64,000 bases of DNA, from assembly GCA_965219345.1 (NCBI GenBank), contig OZ244732.1, positions 1,216,001-1,280,000 of the forward strand, read 5' to 3'. Source of the DNA: Nitrosopumilus sp. (lineage in GTDB: Archaea > Thermoproteota > Nitrososphaeria > Nitrososphaerales > Nitrosopumilaceae). Of this stretch, positions 31,689 through 50,108 are shown one piece after another (the first letter of the stretch is position 1; every line of letters begins with the position of its first letter). The position numbers and the translations under genes are program-made. Under the pieces are notes generated by a model. It did no database searches. It saw nothing but the letters and a program-made list of their open reading frames with translations, and was not told the origin of the DNA.

Positions 31689-31778
31689 ATTGTTAGTTTT
31701 TGTAAAAAGTATATCAAGTGTATGATAATTTTGTGAATTTAGAAAAAATGTTTTATCTTGTTTTATTATGAATAATTA

Positions 31779-32420
31779 TTGGCAAAAATTGTAGTAATTG
31801 TTGGTTCCGTAAGATCTGAAAGACATGGAATTAAAGTTGCAAAATGGGTAGTTGGCAAACTAAAAGATAGAGGACACCAAGTTTCACTGGTAGATCCTGT
31901 GGAATTGGACTTGCTATTATTAGACAAAATGTACAAAGAGATGGACTCTCCTCCTGAAAAATTAAAGAACCTTCAAAAAATCACCAAAGAAGCTGATGGA
32001 TACATTCCAATAACCCCCGAATACAATCACAGTATTTCATCTGCAATGAAAAACACATTGGATTATTTCTTGGAAGAATATTTCTTCAAACCTTCAGCTA
32101 TCATCTCTTATTCTGTTGGCCCTTTTGGAGGTATTATTGCTGGAACTCATCTTTGACAGATATTGGCAGGGATGGGCTGGAAAACATGTGGTTTAGCGTA
32201 GGTACCAACAACTGGAACTCATCTTCGACAGATATTGGCAGAGATGGGAGCCTCTGTCATTCCATCACAACTCCCAATCTCTAAAGTTCATGAAACATTT
32301 GATGATGATGGCAATCTACTTGATGAAAACTATGAGCGAAGATTTTCAAGGTTTCTAGATGAGTTTGAATGGTATGTGTCAGCTCTGGCAAAACAAAGAG
32401 AATCTGGGACACCTTATTGA
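31779..32420 (+). pseudogene. NAD(P)H-dependent FMN reductase interrupted by 72-bp duplication+insert
   Basis: GSVR, TPEYNHS, KNTLD, YSVGPFGG; removing 32140-32211 restores ..AGTHLRQILAEMG.. Confidence 0.9.
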
Positions 32421-32849
32421 TTATACTAAATCATTGGTATTTGGAATTACTCTGAAGATTTTAACAGTATAATCCCCTTCAAAGACATTTACAAATTCTC
32501 CAGTGTTTGAATCAAGACTTCGTACTCTGAATTTGTATTCATAAGATCCATCTCCTTTTACATCAACTTGTGAAAAGTGAATAGGATCTTCACCCTTGTA
32601 CATTTGGATAATTACTGGATATCTTTCAACATAATCTGATGCTGCACCGACTACTGCTCCCCAAGGAAGTTTGTTGTCTTCAGGAATGCTCATTGCAGTG
32701 ACCGTCTCTTGCAAACTTATTTCCTCATTAATTGGAGTTACAGTAATGCTGTTTTGATTAGATTCTGCAGAAATATCTGCTGGGATCATCATTATGCCAA
32801 ATACTGTCATAATTGATGCCATCAAAACTAAACTTGATTTTATATTCAT
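32421..32849 (-). CDS. Exported hypothetical protein
   Basis: Signal peptide; DGSYEYKFRV..GDYTVKI. Confidence 0.75.
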   Translation of the reverse strand: MNIKSSLVLMASIMTVFGIMMIPADISAESNQNSITVTPINEEISLQETVTAMSIPEDNKLPWGAVVGAASDYVERYPVIIQMYKGEDPIHFSQVDVKGDGSYEYKFRVRSLDSNTGEFVNVFEGDYTVKIFRVIPNTNDLV

Positions 32850-33189
32850 CTATTCCTCCTTTTTCCAAGTCCTTTAAAAAATTTGTTACTAATTTGTTCC
32901 AACTTTGTAATTATGGCAATTCTTCTTCTAAATCACAACATGCCTTGTGAACCCATTTTTCATTAGAGTTTTTCAGAATTTCTTTGCCTACTTTGATTGC
33001 CTCACCACATTCTACACATTTTCCGTTAAATCTGGCCTTCATAGTTTTTCTATGATATTATCTAATTTTAACATCTCTTCTAAAAATTTCATAAATGTTA
33101 CAAAATCACCCAAAAAATATCAAGATTTTATCAAAAATAATATGTATATTCCCTTTTGAGTTAGTTGTAAAGAGAAATGATGATTATCA

Positions 33190-33510
33190 TTGCTAAGTGA
33201 AGAGGATCTAATTGCCCGAATTCTAAAAGTTAAAGATCTTAAAGAAAATTGCTTCAAATATCTTGAAGAAAGCTCAAAAGAATTAGGAGTCCCTGTTCCA
33301 ATTGGAGTTGATGCTGGAGGAGATGGCTTGATTCTAAATATTATCTCTGAATGGGAGCCTAGCAAAGTATATTGTGTAAAGTGTAACAGTCTCAAAGGTG
33401 TTAATGTAATGCCAAAGCAGTATTTTGTAACATGTCCTAGTTGCAGGTTTATCTTAGATCAAAAAGAGATAAAGAATAAATGTCCTCATTGTAGTTTTGA
33501 ATTAGTGTAA
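33190..33510 (+). CDS. Small Zn-ribbon protein
   Basis: Three CxxC pairs (CVKC, CPSC, CPHC). Confidence 0.65.
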   Translation: MLSEEDLIARILKVKDLKENCFKYLEESSKELGVPVPIGVDAGGDGLILNIISEWEPSKVYCVKCNSLKGVNVMPKQYFVTCPSCRFILDQKEIKNKCPHCSFELV

Positions 33511-33527
33511 TCCACTTGTTATCACCT

Positions 33528-34961
33528 TCAACTTTCACACCTGGCAGTCGTAGTTATGGTCTGTCTCAGCTGACCTGTAAAGTCTTGACTGATGTCACTA
33601 ATTTGAACTTGCAGATAGCCGGTAGCAAAATGTTGAACTGGAATACCGCTTACAAAATGAGCGTCAGTTGCAGACAGTACGAATCTATTCGCGTATGGAA
33701 CGTTCAAACTCTCAAACTCTGCTTGACCAGGGTTGAACGGGGTTATGGTTACCGACTCTCTATCCCCCTCGCTAGTAGAACCGTACCTTGTCTGCCCCAC
33801 ACCCATGATTGACTCATCACGACTGTTCATCCAGTCAGTTGCAGATATGTCCACATCAATCCACGCAGTGCCAGTATTACTAATTTGAAGTGGCTTTGCA
33901 ACCGAAGTATCGCCATATGCCAGAATGCCAAAGTCCAGATCACCTGATATTATGTCAGCTGAGCATACAGGAGCATCAGTAGCGCCAGAGGCATCCAGCG
34001 TGACGTCAATTGTTTTTGATGCAATCTCGTTTAGGGACCCTACGATAGTGCCGTTTGCAGCAACGGTACCGTAAGGCAGACTGGCAGTCGCATTGTATGA
34101 AAAAGAGTCATTACTAAACACGCCTCTGATGACATAATATTTGGTACCATTTTCCAAGGTTACGGGAGTTATGACTGATCCGTCATCTGTCGTCTCAGGA
34201 AGGTCAAGTCCGACTATTGCATTACTTACAGGGAGATCAAAGGAGGGAAATGGAACCGCGAAGTCGAAGAAGCCATCACCGGGAGGTTGCAAACCAATCA
34301 GGTCATCATCACGGTCAAGCACGACTACGCCGGAACTGTTGGAGGACTTTGTAAAGTCATCCCTGAACGTTACGGATGGCTTTTCACCTACCGTAATCTC
34401 CACGGGTATGGTCTTGGTTGCCCCGGTAGTAGTACAGGTCGCATTCCCGGCATTACCGGTATAGGTGAACTCTTTTATGACAATGTCAAACGTATCGATG
34501 CCCGTATATGTAGCACCGGGGATGTAGTCAAATTCGGCAAGCATTGTGGGGTCGTGGCCAAAGTCATCCGTAGCACAGGTTATGGCAGGTACCTGATTGC
34601 CAAGATCATGATAGTCGTATGGTAATATGGGATCTCCGGATGCCACAAGGCTGCCGCCCTCTTCAGTGGTCAGGGGGTCGGGAAACACGGCAATCCAGGG
34701 ATTGTCACTGCCGGGTTGTCTAAGGTTGATGGCATTATGATATGTGGGATGAACACGATCCTCTGTTACCAGGGACAGATCATGGGCAATCGTACCATAT
34801 CCGACATCGTATCTCAGTGTTGGAAGAATCTCCACGTCAGCATCATTGACTGACTGGCCATACGCATGGCCTGCAGTCACTGCTACTGCTACTACTACCA
34901 CTGTTATCGCTGCAGCCATCAGGATCGCCGCAACAATGCCGTCCCTCTTCTTTAGTGTCAC
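33528..34961 (-). CDS. Secreted beta-rich (Ig-like) surface protein, GC-richer than host
   Basis: Signal peptide; YTGIDTF and LDFG..SNTG Ig-like motifs. Confidence 0.7.
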   Translation of the reverse strand: MTLKKRDGIVAAILMAAAITVVVVAVAVTAGHAYGQSVNDADVEILPTLRYDVGYGTIAHDLSLVTEDRVHPTYHNAINLRQPGSDNPWIAVFPDPLTTEEGGSLVASGDPILPYDYHDLGNQVPAITCATDDFGHDPTMLAEFDYIPGATYTGIDTFDIVIKEFTYTGNAGNATCTTTGATKTIPVEITVGEKPSVTFRDDFTKSSNSSGVVVLDRDDDLIGLQPPGDGFFDFAVPFPSFDLPVSNAIVGLDLPETTDDGSVITPVTLENGTKYYVIRGVFSNDSFSYNATASLPYGTVAANGTIVGSLNEIASKTIDVTLDASGATDAPVCSADIISGDLDFGILAYGDTSVAKPLQISNTGTAWIDVDISATDWMNSRDESIMGVGQTRYGSTSEGDRESVTITPFNPGQAEFESLNVPYANRFVLSATDAHFVSGIPVQHFATGYLQVQISDISQDFTGQLRQTITTTARCES

Positions 34962-34972
34962 TGACTGTATAC

Positions 34973-34987
34973 GGGGGGGGGGGGGGG
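34973..34987. promoter_or_regulatory. G15/C15 tract between TATA-like box and start codon
   Basis: Minus strand TTATTTA-C15-GTATACAGTCA-GTG. Confidence 0.7.
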
Positions 34988-35009
34988 TAAATAACCATAT
35001 CGATCAAGG

Positions 35010-35208
35010 GGAACTGGTAACTTAACGGGAGTTAATTCTTGATGGCAAGTTTCGGGAGCTGGTGTTCTGTATTATTGTATTCCACTTGTTATCCTATCAT
35101 CCTCATTACCGCAATTTGCAGTCCACGATTCTGTATTATTGTATTCCACTTGTTATCCCCCATCATGCGGATTCCTGCCCTGTCTGCCGGTGTGTCTCCA
35201 TCAAGACC
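35010..35208 (-). mobile_element. Relic end of an IS6-like element (transposase tail + TIR-like end)
   Basis: Encodes GLDGDTPADRAGIRMMGDNKWNTIIQN; GGAACTGGTAACTTAACGG matches 13/19 of element-2 TIR. Confidence 0.75.
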
Positions 35209-35440
35209 GTACTAGTAGACATGACGGGTTCATTATTTGATCTATCTTGGGAAAAAGGAGAGACACTATATTGAACACTGTCTTAGCTCTCGAAAGCCTA
35301 TATGATAAAGTCTCTTTTGTGACTCATCATTCCTATGATAAAGGCCGTGAACATCTCAATGACCTTGAGATTGAACACCTAATCAAAATGACAAATGATG
35401 TCGTCATGAAAATCAAACAGCAAACAAAGTAGATGTCAAT

Positions 35441-35605
35441 ATGAACATATGCGTTGAGGGTCACAAGACACGATTTCAGATCACATACAAGTCTGCTAAA
35501 GGCAGAACTTACAAACCAGTATGGTTAATATGCGACATATGTATGCAGAATAAAAAGTGCTTTGGTTCTGAAGATGAAATAGAATCAATTGAGATAATGG
35601 TATGA
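35441..35605 (+). CDS. Small Cys-containing protein (54 aa)
   Basis: MNICVEGH..WLICDIC..; ATGA-coupled to next ORF. Confidence 0.55.
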   Translation: MNICVEGHKTRFQITYKSAKGRTYKPVWLICDICMQNKKCFGSEDEIESIEIMV

Positions 35606-35754
35606 AAATTTGTCAAGTATGCACTAAATCATTTGCATTTGGGCGAAATGGTTGCTGTTCAATTGATTGCTATTTACAGGAATTACAAACAAAATTAAAT
35701 GAATGCTTTAGAAACGATACCAGTCATACCGAACTTTTGACAAAATTAGTTTGA
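35602..35754 (+). CDS. Small Zn-finger protein (50 aa)
   Basis: MKICQVC..CCSIDC. Confidence 0.55.
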   Translation: MKICQVCTKSFAFGRNGCCSIDCYLQELQTKLNECFRNDTSHTELLTKLV

Positions 35755-35948
35755 TTTTAATTAAAACAAGATAATGGATCGGATGGGGTTTGTGTTCACT
35801 GTGAGCGCGGATACCTTTTTGATTGTTCTACAAAATTAGACGACAGAAAGCGATTGGAACGCTTAGAATATTCCTACTCTTTTTTTGTTTTCATCTGTAT
35901 CTGATAATATCTTTCAATATTTTAAAAAATATTTTTGCAAGTTAGAAA

Positions 35949-37079
35949 TCATTTTATCTTTTCAATTATGGGTAAATTAGTAATGGCCATCTTGAGATCA
36001 GGTTCATCAGATTCTGGCCAATTCCAACATCCTTGAATTCTAAGTAATACATTATTGACATCAGTACTTGTAATTTCAATATCTCTAACGTCTATATCAT
36101 ATTCATCACCAAATTGAGAGATTTCATTTATTAGCATATCTTTTAACACTTCTTCATTGATATCTGATGTTAAAATGGCATCCCAATTAGTATGGCAACC
36201 CAGATCATTTTGACGAAATTGAATTGCCCATTCTCGTTCAATTAATTTTGATTTTGTATCTGAACTAACACATGCTATGCGGTTACTTTCAGAATCGTGA
36301 GATTGTTTTAGAATAATATGCAAGTCTGATTTGCAGCGAATAGATTCCTGAAGTATACCAAATTTAGATTATTTGAGAGGGGGAAATGTTTCAGTGACAT
36401 CAGTTAGTTTTCCAATTGTAACTAAAGGATCTTCAGTTATTGCATTCCCTTGTTTGGTTACTGCAAAAGGCCAACTTACATGTATTACACATGATTCATC
36501 TTGAGTCCAAGGTGAATTATTGGATTTAAACAAAATTGCATTAAAATTATAATTACCAGGTCCCAAGGCATTGAAACCAAAAGTCACATCTTTGGTACTG
36601 TTTTTGAAAAATTTTTGGTAATCATATTCAGATGAATTTAATCCAGAAGATGTGGTTTCTGTCAAAACTGCCAAATTTTCATAACCAGTAAATAATCCGC
36701 CATGTATTGTGCCGTCTTGATTTTTCAAGTCAATAAGATATGAAGGGTCTCCAAAACTCGAAGGTAATTCCATTTGCAAATATTCGTATAAAACATCATT
36801 ATGATTTCCAATCACTGCAAAGTAATTGTGTTGAAATCCATCCAAGTCAAGAAGAGAATGATTAGTAGAATTTACCAATTTCACGGAATAATTTGTAAAG
36901 AGAAACATGCACTAATCACTAGATACATCAGTATATTCTAAAATTCCACGTGCAGAAGAATACATGTTATCTGGTAATCGTTTTTCATGTTCTTCACTTG
37001 GAAATCCATATGATTCAGAAGCCATAAACAAAATTCCAGAAAAACCAGTCATAATCAGAAAAATTACAAAATATTTCAT
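35949..37079 (-). pseudogene. Exported protein broken by two in-frame stops
   Basis: Single frame from MKYFVIFL (37079); TAG at 36912 and TAA at 36369 inside the PPLK*..C..ACV..KLIERE W-type motif. Confidence 0.75.
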
Positions 37080-37217
37080 GATACACCTATCGAGAGAATA
37101 TGACTGTCATAAAGTGTTCTAATCTTTTGTATTGATTCTATGATGTTTGAACTTATTTTGTACAATGATGAGAATGGTACTAGGCTGATCTTGCTAAATC
37201 TGATGAAAGTTTGGTTT

Positions 37218-37778
37218 TCATTTTCTTTTTCTCAAAAAATAAAACATAATTCCAGTTACCATTATGCCTCCAATGACAACTGGGATTAACTCATATGCAG
37301 TATTGGTAAATGCAATGGGTTTGGTAATAGAATTTCCTTCAACAATGATTGTTTGTCCTGGACCAAATTCTGGACCTATTTTATCTATATTAAATTGAGT
37401 ATGCATGTGATATGTTCCTGCTTCAAGAGCTTTTGCAGATAGTGAATATTCAATCACGGAGTTTCCTGGAATATTAAAAACTACATCTAGCGGTTCTCTT
37501 GCTAACATTTCCCATCTGTTACTTGTATCTGATGACTCCGAAAAAAATGACAGCCATCCTCTAATTTCTTGGTTATTAGAATTAATCAAAACTCCTCTTA
37601 CAGTCAAGGTTTCACCTGTTTGCAAAAATTGTTGGCCAAAGGTTTCATCGCCGATTGTAATTATGGGTGGAGTGAGAGTGGATTTTATACTATGCATCTC
37701 TGCACTTGGAATGGCAAAATCAATACCCTGAAATCCTAAAACTCCCAGTACAAAGATTATGACAAATACCGTTTTCAT
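37218..37778 (-). CDS. amoB: Divergent archaeal ammonia monooxygenase subunit B paralogue
   Basis: DETF..LQTGETLT, RGW, SES..NRWEML, IPGNSV, LSAKALEAG.YHMHTQ, GPGQT..VEG, KPI..TN.AY match archaeal AmoB as I recall it; termini differ. Confidence 0.85.
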   Translation of the reverse strand: MKTVFVIIFVLGVLGFQGIDFAIPSAEMHSIKSTLTPPIITIGDETFGQQFLQTGETLTVRGVLINSNNQEIRGWLSFFSESSDTSNRWEMLAREPLDVVFNIPGNSVIEYSLSAKALEAGTYHMHTQFNIDKIGPEFGPGQTIIVEGNSITKPIAFTNTAYELIPVVIGGIMVTGIMFYFLRKRK

Positions 37779-37795
37779 TTTTCAACACTCATTTG

Positions 37796-39145
37796 CTAAT
37801 TACTTGCATGTTTAATGATTGGAATGTTGAATGTCCATGGTCCTTCTGCAATCACAATCTTTGGAACCGGCTGATTTTCTATCGGGGTCATATGTGGTGG
37901 TTTTGTCGGAGGTAATGCATCCATTATTGCTCTATCTTGCCTTATCCATTGCACTTCTTCAATGGTGAGAGTAATTTTTTTTGCATTAGAATCTAAAGTT
38001 GGTGAAAAAATATGATGCCAAGAAGAATCTGAGATAATTTCTCTTGTTGCGGGATCTGGTCCGCTTGAACTCCCACCACCTTCACTTTCATTTGTACTGA
38101 CATAGTGATTTCCTAAATCATCTTCCAATGTAATACGTAATATTGGGTGACTATTGTGCATCCTTCCATGCATACGGCGCATTTTATGTATATCCGTAAA
38201 ATCAGATTCTGGAATTTTTATGCGTTGGTGAGAATACCAAATCAACCTCATCATGTTTGAGTAAACTTCCAATGATGGTATTGTAAACTCTGTATCTCCT
38301 ACAAAGAGTTGTTTTGATATGGAAACAACATTGACAAGTTTTTTTGGTGGAAGTCCAAAGGAATCAGCAAAGATCTTTACCAAATCCGCTTCTTTAAACT
38401 CAAATTTTGTATTTTCAGTGATAGTCCAAAAAGGTTTTCCTTCAGGTTTCACATCAAGTATTGCGGACTGAAATGAATTTGGAAATGGGGGAGTATGTGG
38501 ACGGGAACGTTTTTGCATATCATTCTCCATGTTTGGATGTTCTTGATTCTCTTTGTTCTGTAATTCATTCTGCTTTTTTTCATGCCATTCCTTTTGGAAA
38601 GGAATGTTGATTCGGTCATTCTTAGTTACTATAAAACCTATGATTTCAGAATAATCCAGATTTGATTGGTATCCAGACATCATTTTTTCAACTATATTCA
38701 TGGTAGCCAGCGTAACAAGTTCTGCCTCTGTAATATTTTCTGATCTTATCTGTGATTCTGGAAACTTGCTAAGCTTGATTGTTTGCTGCCATTCCCGTGA
38801 AACATCTACATTGCATGAAACTGGTCCATAAATGATGATTTTTGGATGAGGATGTATCTTTTTTCCAGGGTTGTTCAAAAATTCTACTTCCATTTTGTGT
38901 GCAACTATTTCCTGTAAATCTAAATTAGACATGGGCAAACATATTGCAGCAGTATTTTTGGTGATACCGCTTATCTTGACTATGTCTCCTTCTTGTATTC
39001 CAATTTTTTGCATGTATTTTGGTTCTATTTTTACAATTGTTTTACATTGATGTGGATCATTATTTTTTTCAAATCTATCCCTTCTTTTATGCACCACACT
39101 AAATTCAACTGAATTATCATCATTCTCAGTCATTGCGGTGTCCAC
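37796..39145 (-). CDS. Protein with CDC48 N-terminal-like domain, no ATPase domain
   Basis: MQKIGIQEGDIVKISG..TAA; no Walker motifs; C-terminal LEDDLGNHY..GGG..GPWTFNIP. Confidence 0.55.
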   Translation of the reverse strand: MDTAMTENDDNSVEFSVVHKRRDRFEKNNDPHQCKTIVKIEPKYMQKIGIQEGDIVKISGITKNTAAICLPMSNLDLQEIVAHKMEVEFLNNPGKKIHPHPKIIIYGPVSCNVDVSREWQQTIKLSKFPESQIRSENITEAELVTLATMNIVEKMMSGYQSNLDYSEIIGFIVTKNDRINIPFQKEWHEKKQNELQNKENQEHPNMENDMQKRSRPHTPPFPNSFQSAILDVKPEGKPFWTITENTKFEFKEADLVKIFADSFGLPPKKLVNVVSISKQLFVGDTEFTIPSLEVYSNMMRLIWYSHQRIKIPESDFTDIHKMRRMHGRMHNSHPILRITLEDDLGNHYVSTNESEGGGSSSGPDPATREIISDSSWHHIFSPTLDSNAKKITLTIEEVQWIRQDRAIMDALPPTKPPHMTPIENQPVPKIVIAEGPWTFNIPIIKHASN

Positions 39146-39265
39146 AAGTTGATTTATCTAGGACATTCATAAAGTGTTTGCATCTTTTATTCTTTTGAGA
39201 ATGAAGTCATGGATTTGGAATTATTGTATATGCAGTATTGTTGTTGGTACACGGATTATTGATTT

Positions 39266-39823
39266 TCATGGATATTGATCCTCAAGACAATCATAATTTT
39301 TTAAATAATCTAAAATATTTTCAGACACACTATAATTCCCAACTTCACAATAAATAGTCATTTCATGTTCAGAATAATCAAAACCATGACGTATGTTTAA
39401 TGTAATCACGTTATTGTTTGTAAAAGTGTGCATATATCGTATGTATTCTTCATTTGGACTGTAAATTTCGACATCCTCGTATCTATCATAAAATGCAATA
39501 ACTTCAGGATAACCTTCAAATTCATTATTGTAAATATAACTTAAAATGTTAACACGCCAAGTATCCCACTGAACTGCAATTATTTCTGCACCTATTACTG
39601 CAATTATTATTATTATGATCATTTTGATGTTTTTTCTATACTTGATTAACCCAATGATACCGCCAACGCAAATCATGCCCATTCCAAAATGATACCATAG
39701 AAATCCATATTTGTCATATGCTCCTATAACCAACCAAAACATTGTTGCAGAAAACAACCCCATGAGTACTTGGAAAAAAATTGTCAACAAAGATAACTGT
39801 GATAATTTGTATTTAGTTTTCAT
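39266..39823 (-). CDS. Membrane protein
   Basis: Three TM helices; ATGA-coupled. Confidence 0.7.
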   Translation of the reverse strand: MKTKYKLSQLSLLTIFFQVLMGLFSATMFWLVIGAYDKYGFLWYHFGMGMICVGGIIGLIKYRKNIKMIIIIIIAVIGAEIIAVQWDTWRVNILSYIYNNEFEGYPEVIAFYDRYEDVEIYSPNEEYIRYMHTFTNNNVITLNIRHGFDYSEHEMTIYCEVGNYSVSENILDYLKNYDCLEDQYP

Positions 39824-40254
39824 TTCTTTATCAATTTCCTAATAATTGAGGATCTGCACAATAGTATTCCACCAATGGATAATTCAACAATCGGTATTAT
39901 TAACGATATGACTAACTGATCTAAAATGTATGGTTGACTATGATCAATTACAGGTGATGTTGTTATCCAAGATTGTAGAAATGAAATTAGGCTGGCGATG
40001 CCAAAATATACCAATGATCCTGCTATTGCCAAAATAAAATACGGTCTTCTAGGAATGTTTTTTCTCTTTAGAATAAGATAAAGAATTGGAAATAATAATA
40101 ATACTGCAACACCCAATGAATAGCCTACAGATATTACAGCACCAATAATGCGGAATGCTTGTTGTTCTATGTTTTCTGGTGAGTCGTTCCATCCATAAAT
40201 CCAGGGAATCTGTACAAGAAAGAATACAATAATTACCAAAAGTCCAATTTTCAT
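39820..40254 (-). CDS. Membrane protein flanked by 27-bp direct repeats
   Basis: Four hydrophobic segments; TTTTCATTTCTTTATCAATTTCCTAAT at 39817 and 40248. Confidence 0.7.
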   Translation of the reverse strand: MKIGLLVIIVFFLVQIPWIYGWNDSPENIEQQAFRIIGAVISVGYSLGVAVLLLFPILYLILKRKNIPRRPYFILAIAGSLVYFGIASLISFLQSWITTSPVIDHSQPYILDQLVISLIIPIVELSIGGILLCRSSIIRKLIKK

Positions 40255-40272
40255 TTCTTTATCAATTTCCTA

Positions 40273-40662
40273 ATGACTGATGATCTGTATAATAAAAACC
40301 CTGCACCTGTTATTGTTACTTACGACATAACAGTTGAGAATGGAGACGGTAGTGGAAAATATGAAGAAGGATCTGAAGTTACCCTAAGTGCACAAGATAT
40401 TTTAGATGATATGTTTGTGTTCAAAAAGAAACTGGCAGGATGGGAGAATCTACCATATACTACACCAATAGTCACATTTGAGACAGATGATGATATAATA
40501 ACTAAACCCATCTACAAAAATGATTACACCATATTACTTGTAATCATTGGAGCTGGTGCTGGCAGAGGCGGCTTTGTATTTTTGAGAACATGGAGGAAGA
40601 AAAATACACCAAAAAAAACAGATGAATTTTCTGATTATGATGAATTAGAAGATGACTTGTGA
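40273..40662 (+). pseudogene. C-terminal fragment homologous to 54735-57575
   Basis: GDGSGKYEEGSEVTLSA..GWE..YKNDYT vs GQGSGVYKIGDTVKISA..HWE..YREDYT. Confidence 0.75.
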
Positions 40663-40822
40663 TGTAGCAAAGCATGGTAAAGTAATCCCATCATTGATGG
40701 TTTTCAACATTTAGCTACTACAAAAGTAAAAGGTATTCAGATAAAGACTATTAACAAATCCTAATGTGTCCATACTTTACAAAGACTGAATCCTTGTCGA
40801 ATTAAATCCCAAGGTATGATGT

Positions 40823-40990: not shown

Positions 40991-41197
40991 AAATGTCATT
41001 CATAATATTGTGTGACCTCTCCATGAGAGTAATGACGTCAGGAGGAACACCGAAGGCGTTATGACTGAGAGAGGGATCATTTTATTTCAATATGTGGTAT
41101 TCATCTCATTTTTGTCATCGCATTATGAAAGATTGTCACTTCATCTTCAATAACTGCTTGAACTAGTCTTCAACAACAAGTTACAGGTGACTGTTTT

Positions 41198-42076
41198 TCA
41201 AAGAAAATTACGAAATATCTTGAGATATCTTTTCATGAACCATTGTAAAAATATAATGTCGTTGTTTTTGACACTTGATCTTTCAAGTGCAGTATAGTAT
41301 GATCTTCTATCTGTATACTCTATGTCAAACATTGGATAATCAAATCGATTTAAAACATAATTCATCATGAGTCTTGATATTCTACCGTTTCCGTCACCAA
41401 ATGGATGTATTGTCACAAATTTTAGGTGGACTAGAGCTGCTAGTTCTACAGGATTTAGTTCTTTTTTATTTTTCTTATACCAAACAAAGAAACTTTTCAG
41501 TAAAACGGGAACGGCCTCTGATTTTGGTGGGACAAATTTACTTCCACCTATGCGCACTTCAAAGTCACGTATCTGTCCTGCAATGTCTGATTTTGTTTCA
41601 CCAAAGAGTAATTTGTGCCACGACAAAATTGTTCCTAGTGACATGTCCTGTTTTTTTTGCATGATTTGCAAAAATAGTTTTTGATGTATCCTGGTTTCAA
41701 TCATATCACTTGCAGGTTTGTTTGATGGAGTTATTCCATCCATGATAAGATCAGCGGTTTCTCGTAGGGTCAAGGTAGAGCCCTCTATTTTTTGTGTATT
41801 ATAGGTGAATCGAATAGAAAACTCTTCAATTTCCTTTTTTTGTACAGACTTTGGAATTTTAGTTCTTGTTTTTTTGTAGTTCTTCTGGACTTGTTCCATC
41901 TTGGAAACCCAATCTTCCCTGTAAAATCCTAACAGAAAGTTATATTTTATTTGTTCAATGTTTTCTGGAATCTCTTTACCAATGTAAATTTCCTTTTGTC
42001 TTTTCTGGTTTCGTATTTTGTGCTGAAGGTAGTAAAATATACGGTTACCTCGCTTTCTTTTTACTATAGATACCAC
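41198..42076 (-). CDS. Fic-domain protein (class II-like)
   Basis: HPFGDGNGRISR; inhibitory-type TQKIEG. Confidence 0.92.
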   Translation of the reverse strand: MVSIVKRKRGNRIFYYLQHKIRNQKRQKEIYIGKEIPENIEQIKYNFLLGFYREDWVSKMEQVQKNYKKTRTKIPKSVQKKEIEEFSIRFTYNTQKIEGSTLTLRETADLIMDGITPSNKPASDMIETRIHQKLFLQIMQKKQDMSLGTILSWHKLLFGETKSDIAGQIRDFEVRIGGSKFVPPKSEAVPVLLKSFFVWYKKNKKELNPVELAALVHLKFVTIHPFGDGNGRISRLMMNYVLNRFDYPMFDIEYTDRRSYYTALERSSVKNNDIIFLQWFMKRYLKIFRNFL

Positions 42077-42700
42077 AAATGTATTGCCCAGTGCAAATTA
42101 ATAAATGTATTAAATATGTACTAAATGTACTGTGCAATAACAAAATAACATTTGAAAAGTTTTAAGATGGATACTTTGAATGCAATAACGTGTATTTTGT
42201 CTCTTTTTAATTGATTCATCTCTTGAATTTACTTGAAAAGAATACTATTTGCAATTGCCGTAATGTGTTTGATTTCTACCTTTATCGCCCCTGTTTTTGC
42301 ATTTAACGTCTCAGAGATAAAAAGCAAATATCAGGAGAATCATGGTGGTCAGGAAAAAATCTCGCAGAAGGCGACTATTTCATTTATGAAATATGTAATT
42401 CTGAATCATTTACAAAATCAACTTTATCCGGACACTGCTGTGACATTTCACTAGAGTTTGTCTCACTGTTACGGACCAGCACTGGTGGCATGTGGATAGT
42501 TCAAGCACAAATTGTTACAGAAGTGGGAGAAAAAAATATGCCATATTTCAAATTGACGAGACAACATTTGACGTCACCACTTATGACAGAACCGCGATAG
42601 AGTATGCCGATTCAGTTCATGATGCAATATTTTACATGAAGGATTTTGCTAATTCTCAAACAAAAAAAAACACCTAAAAATTGGCAACAGTTGGGGAGCT

Positions 42701-43452
42701 ATGGAATTCTACGCTACGCCAGATCCTGAGATGACAGTCAGAGCGAAAACAACTACTACAATACTTGACGAGCAGATTTCAGTATATGATATAGGATTTG
42801 TCATACTTGAACAAACATCAGTTCTAATTTCAAAAGACATTCCTTTTCCACTAGGTGCAACAGTCTATGACTCTCACAGAATAATTCCTACCACACCAGG
42901 CAAAACGGAGAATCAACATCCACAAGACCATATGTGTCAGTTCCAACGGACATAACATATGCTGCATTAATTGAAAATATCGATACACCAACTGTTGTAA
43001 ACATTCCGGACTTTGCAGGAAAATACCAATACAATGGAGGAAAGCTCACCGATGTTTCATCATTGCTTCCAAACGAGATAGGTTTTGCAGATGAGATAAC
43101 AATGTCAGGCGATGCCGATGCATCTATTGCAGACGGCATCTCCATTACTGGCAGCAGTGGCAGGATAATCATAGAGCTAAATGACTATGCAGACCAAACC
43201 ATGCTTTTAGAGTCTGTAGTGCTTCTAGGTTCCCAATTTGAGGTTGTAGAATCACCTTATGACTTGATTTCTTTGCCATATGTAAATTCAAAGGGTTATC
43301 TGCTTTATTTCTGTAATTGTAATCCTGCTACTCTTGATTTCTATGTATCCACATCATCTATTTTTGCCAAAAATGGGGTTGATTCTATATGTATAAAACC
43401 AAATTTACATTTAACCTCAAATTACAAGTTTGAGTTTCTCTATCATGTCTAA
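42701..43452 (+). pseudogene. Fragments homologous to 57919-60141
   Basis: VESPYDLI..GYLLYFCNCNPAT vs VESPYNLI..GFLINHCTCNPAT; frameshifted and truncated. Confidence 0.7.
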
Positions 43453-43615
43453 GGCATAAAATAAAAAATCATAATGTCTGAATTTTATTAAAGTATGATT
43501 CACAAAAATATCCGAGTGACATTAAACAAAGTTGGGAGAATAATCCTAAAAGTATTACATATCATAATTTCTTTAAATCTAAACTTTTTTATTATTTATG
43601 ATATGTATTATATTC

Positions 43616-44485
43616 ATGGTAAGTATAGTAAAAGAAAGAGGGTTTTACTATCTAAAACATCACATACAGGCAAAAGAAAAGAGAAAGTATTTGGGCAAGG
43701 CAATCCCAAAAAACATAGAATCTCTCAAAAAGGAGTTTCTAAAACAATTTTACTGTGAGGACTGGGATGAAAGGATACAGTCAATTGGCAAAAAATACCA
43801 AAAAGAGCTAAAAAAAATACCAAAGTCAATTCAACTGAAAAATTTTGAGAGTTTTGGAATTGCATTTACTTACAATACCCAGAAAATTGAAGGTTCCAGC
43901 CTCACAAAAATAGATACCAAAGACCTGCTTGTATTTGGAGTGACTCCCGCAAAGAAATCACAGATTGATACCATAGAGACAAAAAAGCACTATGAATTAT
44001 TCATGAAACTAGTAACATCAAAAAAAATACCAAAGCTTACAAAAAAAACGATACTTCAATGGCACAGGGAGATTTTTGATCAAACAAAAATAGGAGAGGC
44101 AGGAAGCATCAGATCATACGGGGTGGAAGTCACCACTAATGAGAAAATAGACTTTACTCCAGTTGCAGAAATTCCAAAAAAATTAACAGAATTTTTTGAC
44201 TGGCTTTACAAATATGATGGAGAGAAAAATACTGCAGAGTTTGCATGTATGGCACACTACAAGTTTGTATCAATACACCCGTTTGGAGATGGAAATGGCA
44301 GAATTTCACGACTCATCATGAACTATATTTTGCTGAAATACAATTATCCATTATTGATGATAAAAAGTACAGACCGAAGGCCTTATTTCAAGTCATTAGA
44401 GAAATCTCAATTAAACCATGATGAGATTCATTTTCTGAAGTGGTTTATGAAGTATTACATCAAAGAAAATAAGCAATATTTGTAA
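43616..44485 (+). CDS. Fic-domain protein (class II-like)
   Basis: HPFGDGNGRISR, TQKIEG; start MVSIVK as in its paralogue. Confidence 0.92.
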   Translation: MVSIVKERGFYYLKHHIQAKEKRKYLGKAIPKNIESLKKEFLKQFYCEDWDERIQSIGKKYQKELKKIPKSIQLKNFESFGIAFTYNTQKIEGSSLTKIDTKDLLVFGVTPAKKSQIDTIETKKHYELFMKLVTSKKIPKLTKKTILQWHREIFDQTKIGEAGSIRSYGVEVTTNEKIDFTPVAEIPKKLTEFFDWLYKYDGEKNTAEFACMAHYKFVSIHPFGDGNGRISRLIMNYILLKYNYPLLMIKSTDRRPYFKSLEKSQLNHDEIHFLKWFMKYYIKENKQYL

Positions 44486-44717
44486 GAACCCTTTTGTGAA
44501 TTATATCATATTCAAAAAAAAAAAAAAATAATTCATTACTAATTCTTTAGACATTCTAAAATCCACGCTCTTATGCAAATTAGTATCTGTAATGCATGAT
44601 ACTAGACTCTTATATTCTCAAAGATGAACTTGGAAAACTATACTGACGAGCAAAAGTTCATGAGATCAAACATGTTAGACGGCAACACATTTTGATCACG
44701 TCCCACTACGCATTACA

Positions 44718-45344
44718 ATGCCCGCAGTAAAATCCGAAGACCTGAAGAAGGCGTACAAGAAGGAAAGGGATCCCAGGGTCAAGATCAGGATGGCCGCAGT
44801 AAACATGGTGTGCATGAACAATGAGAGCATCCAGCATGCGGCAGACTCGCTCATGCAGTGTCCCAACTGGGTCTCCTTCTGGGTGGAACGCTTCCGGGAG
44901 GGCGGCATCGACACCCTCCGGGATCTTCCCAAGAGCGGCAGGCCACCGAAGGTCAGGCCCGAAGACATTGAAGAGACAATGTCCGGGGCAGGCAGCATCA
45001 TTACTCCCCCGCAGCTGAGGGAACGTGTCCGCAAGATGCACGGCATAACATACCACATTACAAGCGCCAGAGGATAATGCGCAGGCTGGGCATGTCTGCC
45101 AAGACGGCAAGACAGGTCCACAAAACAGGGCAGGGACAGACGAAATCAGAAGGTGGCAGCACAACGCAAAGAGGCGCGCATATCGCGCCTGGAATCGAGG
45201 GGTTTTGTCGTCGTAGTCTTTGACGAGTCCATATTCATAGACGACCCGGCATCGGGAACAAAGTACTGGTCCCCGAAGGCCAGCCCATAGTCACCACATA
45301 CAAGGGCAGACACGGCAGGGTCGTGGCGTACGGTTCCATCGCGA
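44718..45344 (+). pseudogene. IS630-family transposase, frameshifted and truncated, conspicuously GC-rich
   Basis: WVERFREGG..LRDLPKSGRPPK HTH; later VVFDESIF; cut by IS5. Confidence 0.8.
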
Positions 45345-46358
45345 CTTGCTTTGTTTCCCAACACCAACTAATCATTAACACCATCTAACCATTTGAAACA
45401 ATTTTGATTTTTCTACTGTATTACAATCATCTTGTTGTACAGACAGACCTTCATTTTCAACTCATGAATCATGTTTTCTCTCCTGTGCGATGTGACATGC
45501 TCTCCAAACATTCTTTTGAATGCAGAAAACACTCCTTCTACGATCCACCTATCGCCATAGCTTACGCTGTTCTTCCACAAATCATAATTGAAAATTTGGG
45601 CCAGTACTGCCTTTCTTCTTGGATAGCAATCAGTAGTAACTGATGAGTTCTTTCTTGTCTTGATTCCTGGAATTATGTTACCATGGTACAAATATGAAAA
45701 ATTATCTTTTGTGTCATATGCACCATCAGCTAGTGTCTTAGTCACATTTCCAAATTGCTTTGACTGCTCAACTAGTGATACAAAAGATTTGGAATCATGG
45801 GAATGATCATCTGTAATTTCCAAACCTGTAATCTGTTTTGATTTTACATCTGCTGCCACATGAATCTTGAGAAATCCTCTTCTTTTCTGCCATTTCTGTC
45901 TCATCCACTCACCCCTGTCTGCAACCTTGATTCCTGAACTATCTATTGCAATGACAATGTCTTTTCCCAGCTTTGGGCTCATCTTGATGTCAAGCTTGTT
46001 TACTCTTTTCCAGATGGCAGAATATGTTGGTGTTTCTGTCTTGGATTTGAGATGTGATTTTATCAGACCTTCAGTTTGTCTATATGGAAGATGCAGATAT
46101 GCATGGCAGTATCCCAGTGCTTCCATGAATGATTCAGGATAAACATACTGGTGTCCTTCTTTTCCACGGTTCATTTCTTTGAGTTCTTTTGTCCATGAGT
46201 CTATTGCGTCAAAAGACAGCATGATTTCACCTCTTCTTACTAGTGTTTGGTTGTATTTTTTCCAGTTTCTACTCATGGAATGATACAAAATGTTCTGATC
46301 CAAACCTTGAGTGATGAAATTAATCAGATAAACTAGTCAGGTTAGGAAACACAGCAAG
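45345..46358 (-). mobile_element. IS5-family (IS903-like) element
   Basis: Imperfect TIR CTTGCT(T/G)TGTTTCC(C/T)AAC; exact ends uncertain by a few nt; no TSD. Confidence 0.8.
45413..46303 (-). CDS. IS5-family transposase
   Basis: NWKKYNQTLVRRG, IDSSG, KIHVA, ADGAYD, Y..RWIVE..F. Confidence 0.92.
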   Translation of the reverse strand: MDQNILYHSMSRNWKKYNQTLVRRGEIMLSFDAIDSWTKELKEMNRGKEGHQYVYPESFMEALGYCHAYLHLPYRQTEGLIKSHLKSKTETPTYSAIWKRVNKLDIKMSPKLGKDIVIAIDSSGIKVADRGEWMRQKWQKRRGFLKIHVAADVKSKQITGLEITDDHSHDSKSFVSLVEQSKQFGNVTKTLADGAYDTKDNFSYLYHGNIIPGIKTRKNSSVTTDCYPRRKAVLAQIFNYDLWKNSVSYGDRWIVEGVFSAFKRMFGEHVTSHRRENMIHELKMKVCLYNKMIVIQ

Positions 46359-46438
46359 CAAAGTGGTTTTGTTATTTTTGAAAGTACTGTAACTAGATTA
46401 TTTTTTGAGATGTCAGTCTCATAATTTTCGTAAAGCAT
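46359..46438 (-). pseudogene. 5' stub of partner gene (putative nucleotidyltransferase toxin) cut by IS5
   Basis: MLYENYETDISKNNLVTVLSKITKPLCLL overlapping upstream gene; identity inferred from context. Confidence 0.45.
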
Positions 46439-47024
46439 CTTTCTCCATCTTTTCTAGTAACATATCTCCTGCTTCAATGCATACACCTCTCTCACTATAT
46501 AAATCCAATATTATTTGAGGTATAGATACGAGCATTAAATCATCTACTTTGAATGATTTGTAAAATACATGATCATCACCAATTAAAATTCTCATATTTC
46601 CTTTACCGACCAGTCCATTTTGCACTAACGATTCATGCCAACGTAGTTTGTCTGATGCATGTATGTAAATATCAGTTCGTGATGGAAATAGATAATTTTG
46701 TATTTTGTTGTCTGCCTGGTATGTTGTCAGGGCATATTCCAGATTGGTTTTTCTTAATAATTCCAATGGTCTTTGTATCATATATTCTCGATATTCTGGA
46801 ATTGGTTGCCATTGTTTCCACCACATCATTAACGATTTGAAATTCCTTACTCTAGTTTTTTGGATTATTCCTTGTTTTTCTAGTTTTTCTAATAATTTGT
46901 GAATCCACGGATATCCACTATCTGCCAGCTTTGATATTCGATATTTTGTCAATGTTCCATTGGGCTCATTAAATAGTATTCTGGCTACTCTACCCTTGAT
47001 ATTAGTTCGCGTTTCCTTTTTCAT
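46419..47024 (-). CDS. wHTH + AbiEi-like (type IV TA antitoxin-like) protein
   Basis: N-terminal HTH; YALT..A..TDIY..VSIPQIILDLY. Confidence 0.6.
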   Translation of the reverse strand: MKKETRTNIKGRVARILFNEPNGTLTKYRISKLADSGYPWIHKLLEKLEKQGIIQKTRVRNFKSLMMWWKQWQPIPEYREYMIQRPLELLRKTNLEYALTTYQADNKIQNYLFPSRTDIYIHASDKLRWHESLVQNGLVGKGNMRILIGDDHVFYKSFKVDDLMLVSIPQIILDLYSERGVCIEAGDMLLEKMEKDALRKL

Positions 47025-47217
47025 TCTATTACTTTATTTTTACTAACCGTTTCTAATAAATTTATATCGTTTTATTTTAAATAATAGTTCTAATAGATAT
47101 ATATTGTTTTATTTTAAAAGAACATTGTAAAAACGATATTTTATACTTGAATTATGTATAGCAGATCAAAAAATGTATGTATTTTTTCTTTAAATATAGA
47201 TTAGTGTCTTAAAAGTT

Positions 47218-48147
47218 AACACTTTTTCACGATCTCTTATTTTACCGTTCAGTCTTTCTATTTTGTTATTGTTCTTGTCACCTTTCAAGTGAATGTGTCT
47301 AACGTGGTTTGTATCATTGCCAAACACTTTCTTACTTGATTTCATGTACGCTGGCAATCAATCTTTTATGAAATTTCTAGGATTCTTGCCAGCTTGCTCT
47401 TTAGTCATGGTCAATAGATTGTCTGCATTATGATGAAATTTGTTGTCTGCAGCATCAGAAGCCAACCAAAATCTAGAATCATCATCCATTGAGGCAAAGA
47501 GATAACACATTGTTTGCCGTTGATTTTTACCCATGCCTCGTCTGCCCTGAACCAGTTACCAACTCTAGGCACAATGTCATTAAGATACCTTGATGTCATT
47601 TTGGAATATTTTTCAATCCAGTTGTAAATACTGCAATAACTTACCTCAATCTCTTCTTTGCTCAAAACAGTCTGCAATGTCTCTAACTGACATTTCAGTA
47701 TAATACATCTGCAAGGCCCTAGTAATGATAACATCCTTTGATCTCATTTTTTCAAATCCGAAATTGGCAGTAAATCGCTTCTTGCAGTCAAGACATTTGT
47801 AACTCTGCTTATTACCTTATTTGGATTTTCTCATACCTCATTTTTTGATACTGCCTGAATCACAATACTTGCATAATGATAACTTGTTTCGTTCCATGAT
47901 TCTGAATGTATTGTTACGATAGCACTTGTTTTTTCGGATTATCTCCAACACGATTTTGATGTGCTTGCAATCATCTTTTCTAACCTGATGATCTTTACAT
48001 TCACAGATTAATCCATCTCCAATCTTTGACACAACGTAAAAATTTTCAGGATTGGCCTGTGATCTTACTTAACTTGTCATGGTCAAATTGAGAACAGTAT
48101 CCTTTTGACTCCATTATTTGTTTGGCTCACTGTGTTCGTGAATTCAT
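47218..48147 (-). pseudogene. Degraded IS6-like transposase, paralogue of 2938-4056
   Basis: CECKDH..CKHIK, LCKYCDSG, VPRVGNWFRADE, IERLNGKIRDREK; multiple frameshifts; C-terminus lost. Confidence 0.9.
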
Positions 48148-48493
48148 GCATGATTCACCTCGAAAATTAATATAGAATTAAAATAATTTGTAATGCGGAG
48201 GGAAAAAGAAGGCTCAGTTGTCACGGCTGTTTGTTTCTTTTTTTCTTCTTGTAGTTTTGATTGTTTTTGTAGTCATTGCTAGCACAGCAAAAGATTTGAT
48301 ACAAGCATCATGATCACAGCGTGTCACAGCGTGCCACAACTGTTGAATCCTGCATCGTTCTTGGTTCGTGTTGAATTAAGAATTTGGTGTTTATTTCCGG
48401 CTAGATAATGCATTTGATGAGGCCAACGCCAACTAGCCTCACGGTGGATTAGTCAGTGTTGAAGAATAAAGTAGAAAGTCGACACGGAAATTT

Positions 48494-48703
48494 TCATGGA
48501 GTGTTGTTTACATCGCCTTTTTGTATCGACTGCCTCCTGAGCTCGGCGGCAACAGCCTTTTGCACCTCCGGCGGCAGATCCCCGTGATGAAGCAGCGACA
48601 CTCGCAGGCCCATTATCACGTCGTGTACGCTCAAAAAGTCGTTGTCCATATGCGGTGCAAACGTGTTCTTGAACGTCTGATTAGATGAATCTTGGAGGGT
48701 CAT
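48494..48703 (-). CDS. Hypothetical protein
   Basis: Overlaps upstream gene on the same strand. Confidence 0.45.
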   Translation of the reverse strand: MTLQDSSNQTFKNTFAPHMDNDFLSVHDVIMGLRVSLLHHGDLPPEVQKAVAAELRRQSIQKGDVNNTP

Positions 48704-49133
48704 TCTTTTTCAACACCACTATAGATAGTTGTCCATACCTTCGTTTATACTTTAATGCCTTCTCACGCTCGATCCCGGAGATTGCTATGGTGACATCTCT
48801 GTATGTGATCCCGTTAATGTCAGTCCATTGGCCCAGCATTACGCCTGCTCCCTGTTTGCGAAACCTGACATACTCATTTCTAGTGTGCTCATCAAAGTTC
48901 TTCTTGTTGTTGGTGACAGAGATAAGGTAGACTGGCTGTCCACCATCTGTAAGTCTTTCAAAAAGTGTGTCCCTTTCGTCTGGCTTTGCCAGATCTATGC
49001 AGGATCCAATGCTCGGATGATATGTTACGGATTTTGAACCGTGCTGCCGGATTGACTTTACTCCAGCATCGTATTCCCTGCCGTATTCGTGAGGATCGTG
49101 TTGTTGCTTGCGATCCAAACCTGGCCCACTCAC
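48681..49133 (-). CDS. Hypothetical protein
   Basis: 150-aa ORF, GTGA-coupled to upstream ORF. Confidence 0.6.
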   Translation of the reverse strand: MSGPGLDRKQQHDPHEYGREYDAGVKSIRQHGSKSVTYHPSIGSCIDLAKPDERDTLFERLTDGGQPVYLISVTNNKKNFDEHTRNEYVRFRKQGAGVMLGQWTDINGITYRDVTIAISGIEREKALKYKRRYGQLSIVVLKKNDPPRFI

Positions 49134-49297
49134 GCTACAATCTTTGCAAGCTTTTTGAGTTCTTCTTTGGTCAATGTCAGCCTAAACAGCACTGCGTCTG
49201 GATTCTTTGCATTCTTGGCCTGCGGATAAAAACTAATCACAAACTTGGAGCCGTCCTTTTTTATCTCGTATGGCCTTCCGCCGATGGTATCTCGCAT
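49130..49297 (-). CDS. Small hypothetical protein (55 aa)
   Basis: MRDTIGGRPYEIKKDGSKFVISFYP..; below ORF-track cutoff. Confidence 0.55.
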   Translation of the reverse strand: MRDTIGGRPYEIKKDGSKFVISFYPQAKNAKNPDAVLFRLTLTKEELKKLAKIVA

Positions 49298-49351
49298 GAT
49301 GATATGAAACAGACGAGATTTATAGAGTTATTGTATTATCTAAAATTTTAG

Positions 49352-50108
49352 TCAGATCTCCATTACTGTCACTGTATCGTTTTGATGTATGGCATAATGG
49401 TGTAATGCGGTATCAAGACAGATGTGGTATTTGTTTTGCTGGACATAGAGCATAGCAAATCTTACGAGAGTAACAGGTATCAAGACAGATGTGGTATTTG
49501 TTTTGCCGTACCTCTGGTGCTCTGGTATGGCCAAATATCTGCCTGATTGCTGGAATGTCTGTAAACTCGTCATAGTCACACCATACGATTCCGCCGTTTT
49601 TGTGCGGACCACCGCGCGATATTCCGACCTGAAAGAATTTTTGCAGACGATTCACATCATCAATATGTCTTAGACCCTCAACTGACTGTGCCATGAACTC
49701 TTTCAGACTCGTAGTTCCATATTCCTCAAAGAACTGCCTGCTTACTCCTGCATGGGTACAAAGATAGCTGCCAACATAGCAGTACGAAGTCATTTTCGTC
49801 CATGGTATGTCATACGAACCTATGATGTATCTTTTGAACTCGAAGAATCCAGAGCAGCGAAATGCAGGATTGCCAGTCATGTAGTGCAGATCATGGTTTC
49901 CAACCAAGTGAACTCTGTCTTGCTGTTCTAGTGATGTGACAAGCCATCTTGCAGTATTGTGAGTGTCCAAGGCCGTCTCGTAGAACGCATCAAAGTAATC
50001 TCCCAGAAATACAGTCTTGTCCAGGGATTCCCTTTCTATGATGGACTCTGCAGTCTGGAATTTTGTGTGGATGTCAGGTATTATGAGGGTTTTAGCGTCG
50101 TGTGCCAT
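49352..50108 (-). pseudogene. Calcineurin-like metallophosphoesterase, C-terminus frameshifted by 67-bp duplication+insert
   Basis: PDIH, LGDYFD, GNHD, THAG, FGHT; removing one repeat plus the insert gives CLDTALHHYA..MEI*. Confidence 0.85.

Follow-up and report, generated by a model that had tools for sequence, protein, structure and literature searches.

How does a stretch of ordinary host sequence come to stand twice in a chromosome, with a short unrelated insert between the two copies, at three places in one window? The window in question is the whole 64,000-nucleotide stretch analyzed here (C1:1216001-1280000, where C1 is contig OZ244732.1 of assembly GCA_965219345.1), and it belongs to the 1.91-Mb, two-contig genome (36% G+C) of an archaeon, Nitrosopumilus sp., which we call G000. 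A preliminary description, made from the letters of the window alone, had suggested that the three lesions arose by natural off-target integration of CRISPR spacers, with the adaptation machinery acting at two ruler lengths. Our analysis of the whole genome, its relatives and public contigs supports that suggestion, as the lesions fall into sharp size peaks, a matching cas locus is present and some inserts are copies of distant loci; they are very probably scars of off-target Cas1-Cas2 spacer integration. The coordinates and sizes first given for the three lesions were reproduced exactly, and their parts are as follows.

32140..32176, + strand: lesion 1, target copy 1; 37 nt matched, true duplication probably 36; derived at two positions, with an in-frame TGA resulting at one of them
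32177..32211, + strand: lesion 1, 35-nt spacer-sized insert; contains an in-frame TAG
32212..32248, + strand: lesion 1, target copy 2
35065..35094, unstranded: lesion 2, target copy 1, 30 nt; identical to copy 2
35095..35128, unstranded: lesion 2, 34-nt insert
35129..35158, unstranded: lesion 2, target copy 2; intergenic, inside a ~75-nt sequence that is conserved and multi-copy across the genus
49409..49439, unstranded: lesion 3, target copy 1, 31 nt; boundary set by the uninterrupted site in the relative G094
49440..49475, unstranded: lesion 3, 36-nt insert
49476..49506, unstranded: lesion 3, target copy 2

All three lesions are insertions accompanied by a target duplication, since relatives carry the corresponding sites uninterrupted and empty. 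The copies of lesion 1 (32140-32248; 37+35+37) differ at two positions, and at both of these G007 shares the base of copy 2 and not that of copy 1. Both copies align to one and the same 35-36-nt stretch in G007 (87% identity) and in G012, and the uninterrupted gene is also present in G087. In lesion 2 (35065-35158; 30+34+30) the copies are exact; its target is single-copy in two loci of G048 (71-82% identity), with both flanks homologous. The repeat of lesion 3 (49409-49506; 31+36+31) is likewise exact and extends to 36 nt if two mismatches are allowed. Its empty site lies in G094, where the locus (98-99% identity) has the 31-bp target exactly once and the window has 67 additional bases. The three inserts are unlike each other and have no match in the window, as had been noted before, and none has a second copy anywhere in the genome.

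Are such lesions confined to the window? Isolated two-copy direct repeats of at least 22 nt at a spacing of 24-200 were collected from the whole genome with a k-mer scan. Among the 62 found, the period is 70-76 in 30 and 64-67 in eight, and the range of 50-100 is otherwise nearly empty, which gives two sharp peaks in place of the continuous size distribution that had been named as grounds for rejecting the CRISPR explanation. Curation reduced 78 candidates to 40: entries in which a third in-register copy reached 50% identity or more were dropped, as were the coding tandem array found at C1:1127-1131 kb and 16 repeats, coding or of low complexity, that were listed by hand. These 40 became 36 when the lesions at 243305 and 1826944 were set aside as duplicates of those at 37490 and 1483340, and the pair 804496 and 1846006 as one event at two loci, of period 57/54 and of doubtful kind. 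The curated set thus holds 36 non-redundant lesions. The main class (28/36), to which lesion 1 belongs, has a period of 70-76 and a matched repeat length that is mostly 36 (11 lesions) or 37 (eight lesions); its period minus 36 averages 36.96. The short class (8/36) includes lesions 2 and 3 and has a period of 64-68, with repeats mostly of 30-32 bp around inserts of ~34-36 bp. The two repeat copies are identical in 21 of the 36 lesions and carry one or two mismatches in the remainder.

Three random genomes of the same size, generated with an order-3 Markov model, contained 1, 0 and 0 repeats of at least 22 nt at 45-90 bp spacing, and none of at least 27 nt. As this control is near zero, chance does not explain the lesions. 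A contiguous uninterrupted homologue was found for 20 of the 40 catalogue entries in a set made up of G000 itself, four 400-kb samples of relatives and three loci, and the lesion at 1504869 has its empty site in G018. The lesions are not CRISPR arrays in their own right: each consists of two copies only, and the repeat is local host sequence. The further idea that they seed new arrays is not supported, as no lesion has a third repeat copy (identity to a third in-register copy is below 0.5). A structure that belongs to neither class lies at C1:1464128-1464320, where two 50-nt repeats stand 81 nt apart, with a partial third copy and fillers of 31 and ~60 nt.

What in this genome could measure out such units? 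In the sole CRISPR array (C1:1641728-1653821) a 36-nt repeat occurs 164 times, 163 times in identical form; the spacers are 35-40 nt long and the period is 71-76 in 150 of the 163 units. The array is placed between cas2 and csb2. Upstream are a Cas4g/Cas1g fusion (754.4 bits against an NCBIfam cut-off of 560) and Cas2 (36.9 against 24.5); downstream are Csb2 (132.7 against 45), Csb1/Cas7g (92.5 against 38), Cas8g/Csx17 (563.4 against 150) and Cas3g (731.7 against 400). Judged by these family models, the locus is a complete type I-G CRISPR-Cas system. The main class reproduces the unit of this array, because its 36-bp duplication and ~37-bp insert match the 36-nt repeat and the period of 71-76. 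The comparison with the genome's own CRISPR unit and cas1/cas2 genes, which had been proposed as a check, therefore places the main peak on the geometry of the only array, in an intact type I-G locus.

The inserts provide a second line of evidence. Seven of the 36 are full-length copies (34-39 nt; six exact, one with a single mismatch) of chromosomal loci hundreds of kilobases away, and an eighth matches a distant host locus over 26 nt. Since the traceable inserts come from such distances, local template switching, which would have accounted for the inserts without any adaptation machinery, is ruled out as their source. The copies also settle ambiguous boundaries; the lesion at 429362, for example, is 36+37 and not 33+40. 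Apart from two duplicated loci, all inserts are different from one another, and they are 28-40 nt long, non-coding and free of shared terminal repeats. Searches for the three window inserts gave no match in the host, nor, in the collection viral_contigs, any exact match of a 26-mer (lesion 1), a 24-mer (lesion 2) or a 25-mer (lesion 3). In 150 further genomes of the genus the insert of lesion 3 is absent, with up to three mismatches allowed. None of the inserts is matched by a spacer of the array. Among the 163 array spacers there is no full-length self copy, and against the genome and its second contig, C2, these spacers give chance-sized matches of 16-21 nt only, with no target from which a protospacer-adjacent motif (PAM) of the array could be read. 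Contig C2 (41,585 bp) has a chromosome-like G+C content, and neither array spacers nor lesion inserts match it.

Lesions of the same kind recur in congeners that have a type I-G system. Of the 101 genomes of the genus that were searched with the Cas4g/Cas1g model, eight, G000 among them, score above its cut-off. Relatives were sampled over 400 kb each, around the CRISPR locus in type I-G genomes, and these samples are small and not phylogenetically independent. Lesions of period 70-76 numbered nine in G087, three in G051, whose array repeat is identical to that of G000, and ten in G009, all with type I-G. The congeners without it had none in G007 (one candidate lies in a 75-nt coding repeat), none in G002 and no clean case in G017. 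The first 400 kb of G007 include an interval syntenic with one that holds eight of the lesions; only lesion 1 keeps both flanks there, and the others lie in DNA that is absent from G007.

Several other traces of CRISPR-Cas were seen among these genomes and beyond. Although G007 has no Cas4g/Cas1g match, it contains a mini CRISPR array of five 36-nt repeats (GTTTCAATCTTTATTG...) at G007:C1:16241-16570 (L020), and a two-repeat remnant related to it lies at G017:C1:1401155. Proteins 50-57% identical to the Cas4g/Cas1g of G000 are found in metagenome-assembled genomes of Caldilineaceae and Dehalococcoidia (L125-L142), a hint that archaea and bacteria have this type I-G module in common.

If there is no leader at these sites, how are they chosen? 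An expectation-maximization fit in which orientation was hidden, compared with 100 control sets of random sites, showed that one of the two target ends bears an asymmetric motif, 5′-G/C-T-W-G-N-A-A with a C-rich flank (log-likelihood 72.3 versus 32.5 ± 5.1, maximum 44.1, in controls). The choice of sites is not random, and the target end in question tends towards the form 5′-G-T/C-W-G-N-A-A. The motif is similar to the spacer-side end of the native repeat, read on the bottom strand (GCTTCAAT), and not to its leader-side end. When the same matrix was applied to 12 lesions of G087 and G051 that had been held out, they scored higher than random sites (one-sided Mann-Whitney p = 0.004). Paralogous sites have been hit in independent events with different inserts, namely 404166 and 1448839, 1824847 and 1483340, and, in G009, 1744491 and 1800775. 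Lesions are also clustered, with gaps of less than 10 kb in 12 of 35 cases versus 6.1 expected (P = 0.008), and the G+C content around them is 0.406 versus 0.360 (p = 3e-5). Many lie in insertion sequence (IS) copies, at gene ends or in accessory DNA that G007 lacks. This distribution could reflect either targeting or mere tolerance.

How might the adaptation machinery produce such scars? In the normal reaction, Cas1-Cas2 inserts a prespacer of ~37 bp where the array adjoins its leader, through two staggered strand transfers, one repeat length apart and on opposite strands, and gap filling then duplicates the repeat. Off target, the same reaction on ordinary chromosomal DNA would leave a spacer-sized insert between two copies of a 36-bp host sequence. 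The candidate enzyme for the 28 lesions of the main class is the resident type I-G Cas4/1-Cas2. Scars would be expected to persist mainly where they are tolerated, namely in IS copies, at the ends of genes, between genes and in accessory islands that are richer in G+C; some of them kill genes. Self-derived inserts should be harmless at off-target sites, because their flanks are not CRISPR repeats and no CRISPR RNA (crRNA) would be expected from them. Self-derived inserts in 7 of 36 lesions, versus 0 of 163 array spacers, would be expected if self spacers were lethal in the array only. Which enzyme acted, in what order the strands were transferred and that crRNA processing is lacking are our inferences.

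Any other explanation has to accommodate what is observed: the geometry, the empty sites, the self-derived inserts, the co-occurrence with type I-G and the end motif. Errors of repair or replication unrelated to CRISPR, among them template switching, slippage and filler-containing end joining, can yield short duplications with captured filler, and the lesions do cluster beyond random expectation. We consider this origin very improbable, as the two narrow peaks coincide with CRISPR unit sizes, the traceable inserts are spacer-sized and come from far away, the targets share an asymmetric end motif, and the samples of the three congeners without type I-G yielded no lesion where those of the three with it yielded 3-10 each. 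Target duplications of casposons are ~14-15 bp long, and those of IS elements are shorter than 36 bp. To regard the lesions nonetheless as footprints or miniatures of some other mobile element with long target duplications, be it a casposon, a transposon or a miniature inverted-repeat transposable element, seems scarcely credible to us. IS elements are abundant in the window, and many congeners carry Cas1 homologues in frames of ~410-450 amino acids that match only the Cas1 part of the model and may be casposases; an excerpt of one study also documents family 1 casposons of Nitrosopumilus (PMC8464041). But the inserts are all different, mutually unrelated, non-coding and only 28-40 nt long, with no common terminal repeats, and the Cas1 homologues of G000 itself are limited to Cas4/1 and a 77-amino-acid Cas1b fragment. 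Artefacts of assembly or consensus deserve mention, since the genome appears to be a metagenome assembly, yet they are just as hard to credit. An assembler cannot yield exact, spacer-length copies of distant loci together with 36-bp duplications and an end motif, and lesions of this sort are present in three further assemblies. Contigs of the public runs X3 and X6, which may be the source sample, bridge lesion 1 (31500-32495) with no gaps. The search for spanning sequence that had been called for succeeded for lesion 1 and, among the contig pieces listed, found none over lesions 2 and 3.

That partial result, which by itself tells neither for nor against lesions 2 and 3, stands with several that weigh against off-target integration as the explanation. 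Among the contig pieces listed, none bridges lesion 2 or lesion 3; those of X3 and X6 stop at 49299 and resume at 49477. A break at lesion 3 is expected if the lesion is real, because an assembly with k=31 there meets an exact repeat of 31 nt, and the contig joints near lesion 2 appear to stem from paralogous loci. G017, which has no type I-G system, contains three paralogous repeat-insert-repeats linked to poly-G, with periods of 72, 76 and 81, which are unexplained; at these loci a direct repeat of ~36-40 nt surrounds a filler in which poly-G is present. The off-target inserts are ~1 nt shorter on average than the array spacers (37.0 versus ~38.0). No source was traced for the other ~28 inserts, including the three in the window; the look-ups recommended in the preliminary description thus paid off for 7 of 36 inserts genome-wide and for none of those it had listed. 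The seven traceable protospacers have no consistent PAM-like motif beside them: TTN is present at three of the seven in the orientation defined by the end motif and at two in the opposite one. Within the 400 kb sampled from each of G087 and G051, no insert is self-derived.

The short class raises the question of whether a second integrase was at work. At C1:1123013-1123246 the genome has a 77-amino-acid Cas1b fragment that is 62% identical to the Cas1b of G017 and 29% identical to its own Cas4/1; the best NCBIfam match of this fragment is type I-B Cas1b, at 88 bits against a cut-off of 304. A solitary 30-nt repeat adjoins it (C1:1123248-1123277), with four mismatches to the type I-B repeat of G017. 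This fragment and single repeat are a relic, and G000 has no intact type I-B CRISPR-Cas system. The intact type I-B locus of G017 has 30-nt repeats and a period of 65-69, with 46 of 57 units at 66-67. The short class was probably made by a type I-B adaptation module with 30-nt repeats that has since been reduced to this relic, and the two ruler lengths proposed earlier would then find their second ruler, of 30-31 bp, in a decayed module of the same genome. Two results speak against this attribution: G017, which bears type I-B, has no 30+36 lesion in 400 kb, contrary to prediction, and G087, which also has a Cas1b-like gene, has no short-class lesion in 400 kb. Both would be easier to understand if the type I-G Cas4/1-Cas2 had made both classes, with the second, ruler-measured strand transfer of the short class falling short by ~5-6 bp, or half a helical turn. 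Two paralogous hot spots have a 36-bp and a 30/31-bp duplication whose starts, on the side of the motif, are no more than 1-2 nt apart, and only their opposite ends differ; there is no intact second Cas1 in the genome; and a type I-G Cas4/1 is described, in an excerpt of an in vitro study, as integrating correctly at the spacer side in only 60-70% of events (PMC10504553). We nevertheless hold a single enzyme with two rulers to be rather unlikely, as the duplications of the short class gather in a discrete peak at 30-32 bp and do not form a tail, and as this class is missing among the 22 lesions of the three other type I-G genomes sampled, and has periods of 64-68 that fit the type I-B array period, in a genome that retains a type I-B relic with a 30-nt repeat.

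What have the lesions done to the genes around them? The relevant features of the window are these.

31779..32399, + strand: NADPH-dependent FMN (flavin mononucleotide) reductase gene with lesion 1; PF03358, 101 bits on the 5′ part
33528..35003, − strand: 491-amino-acid gene of a paralogous family with at least 7 copies, no Pfam match; paralogues 82-96% identical in DNA
44638..45347, unstranded: IS-like multi-copy element, ~710 bp; HTH_32/HTH_29 transposase-type domains; 5-6 copies at 91-98% identity
45413-46303: DDE_Tnp_1 transposase gene beside the IS-like element
49413..50108, − strand: calcineurin-like phosphoesterase gene, PF00149; lesion 3 near its 3′ end

The lesions had been thought to hit three coding sequences, which is true of lesions 1 and 3 (PF03358 and PF00149) and not of lesion 2, which is intergenic. 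Lesion 1 is an in-frame insertion of 72 bp, with stops in repeat copy 1 (C>T, giving TGA) and in the insert, and it kills the FMN reductase gene through these introduced stop codons. The 67 bp of lesion 3 shift the frame at the 3′ end of the phosphoesterase gene, which now has 241 codons versus 239 with the lesion removed and differs over the last ~20. Lesion 2 lies ~60 nt upstream of the 491-amino-acid gene, beside a 15-G run. It is spanned by no Pfam match and by no frame of more than 82 amino acids, and ARAGORN and Rfam searches over window positions 30-52 kb found no transfer RNA (tRNA) or known RNA at this site. Lesions gather beside copies of the 491-amino-acid family, at their 3′ ends or just upstream, as is seen for lesion 2 and for those at C1:404166, C1:1448839 and C1:333438.

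The IS-like element has also been a target. In X3 and X6, a copy of it contains an additional repeat-insert-repeat of period 73, and two 14-mers of that insert are absent from the assembly, which suggests strain or sample variation. The lesion known from C1:1335276 is carried by another run, X8. Since the copy at 44638-45347 is unoccupied, it serves as the empty site for both the C1:1335276 lesion and the period-73 lesion of X3 and X6.

Some further features of the region were noted in passing. The 15-G run occupies window positions 34973-34987 and is one G shorter in some contigs of run X3; the tract may be variable in length in a manner resembling phase variation. The ~75-nt sequence that includes the lesion 2 target (window 35128-35202) is 73-80% conserved and multi-copy in many congeners, with weaker copies at C1:967142-967216 and C1:72538-72612 and no tRNA or Rfam match. 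The flanks of the lesions at C1:966989 and C1:1638625 match one and the same G007 locus. At window 60545-60630, a 43-nt unit with an internal palindrome (GTTGTTGCC...GGCAACAAC) stands in two tandem copies.

How do these lesions compare with what is known of spacer integration? In E. coli, off-target integration by Cas1-Cas2 generates neo-CRISPR units (Nivala, Shipman and Church, Nat Microbiol 2018), as related in excerpts of papers that cite that work (PMC6698737; bioRxiv 10.1101/148544; PMC7054753; PMC11788318). The lesions described here share with those units, so far as these excerpts describe them, a spacer-sized insert and a repeat-length duplication of the chromosomal target outside any array. 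The E. coli work, as described there, relied on a laboratory strain that was supplied with oligonucleotides and over-produced type I-E Cas1-Cas2, whereas G000 presents dozens of fixed events in an unengineered archaeon. It differs from the E. coli case, as there presented, also in the type I-G and probably type I-B geometry, the self-derived inserts, the disruption of genes and the recurrence in congeners. No multi-spacer neo-array is seen among the G000 lesions. As to natural occurrence, the excerpted preprint speaks of "circumstantial evidence" in two other species and calls its commonness unclear (bioRxiv 10.1101/148544).

The type I-G systems of Methanosarcina barkeri and Geobacter sulfurreducens have the same gene set as G000, and the M. 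barkeri repeat closely resembles the G000 repeat at its start (GTTTCCATAAC...) and at its end (...ATTGAAGC). In M. barkeri, according to the excerpt available, spacer-side integration is the less faithful step (PMC10504553). Those studies concern on-target integration in vitro, whereas the sites in G000 have no leader and a determinant that resembles the spacer-side end of the repeat. A TTN/TTC PAM is not seen consistently at the traceable G000 inserts, where TTN accompanies three or two of the seven, depending on orientation. Ectopic acquisition in Streptococcus thermophilus and S. mutans also takes place away from the leader-proximal repeat but, in the excerpts at hand, uses a genuine array repeat (PMC7999890; PMC8265633), whereas the sequence duplicated in G000 is ordinary host DNA. 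Self-targeting array spacers, as portrayed in part of another report, are likewise host DNA captured by the adaptation machinery (PMC6990116), whereas the host-derived pieces in G000 are outside the array, between flanks that are not CRISPR repeats, and the array itself has no self match. In the literature searched, supplements not covered, we found no report of natural genome-wide off-target integration, nor of any in Nitrosopumilus, beyond the works cited. The natural case described here is notable for its scale, for two size classes that are each linked to a subtype of their own, for inserts of self origin and for its recurrence in congeners.

Our findings in G000 and in three type I-G congeners suggest that off-target integration happens in nature, and repeatedly. 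The process appears frequent enough for dozens of scars to have become fixed, for genes and IS copies to have been inactivated and for the whole to serve as a fossil record. It is tempting to go further and suppose that off-target adaptation is an endogenous mutagen of type I-G Nitrosopumilus, leaving about one fixed scar per 50 kb and, because its site choice follows a motif, preferentially striking accessory islands and the transposase genes of IS elements. In that case the adaptation module would also be an insertional silencer of mobile DNA, and the scars would be a record of what adaptation samples that is free of autoimmune selection, about one fifth of it self. We regard this extension as unlikely; if it is true, the record would be otherwise unobtainable for organisms known here from metagenome assemblies. 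Off-target integration on this scale opens to testing the cost of adaptation to the host, the choice of sites without a leader, the sampling of self DNA before selection and the birth of arrays. It also provides a genomic signature, since an isolated repeat-insert-repeat with the period of a CRISPR unit can reveal past or present adaptation, including that of systems that have been lost.

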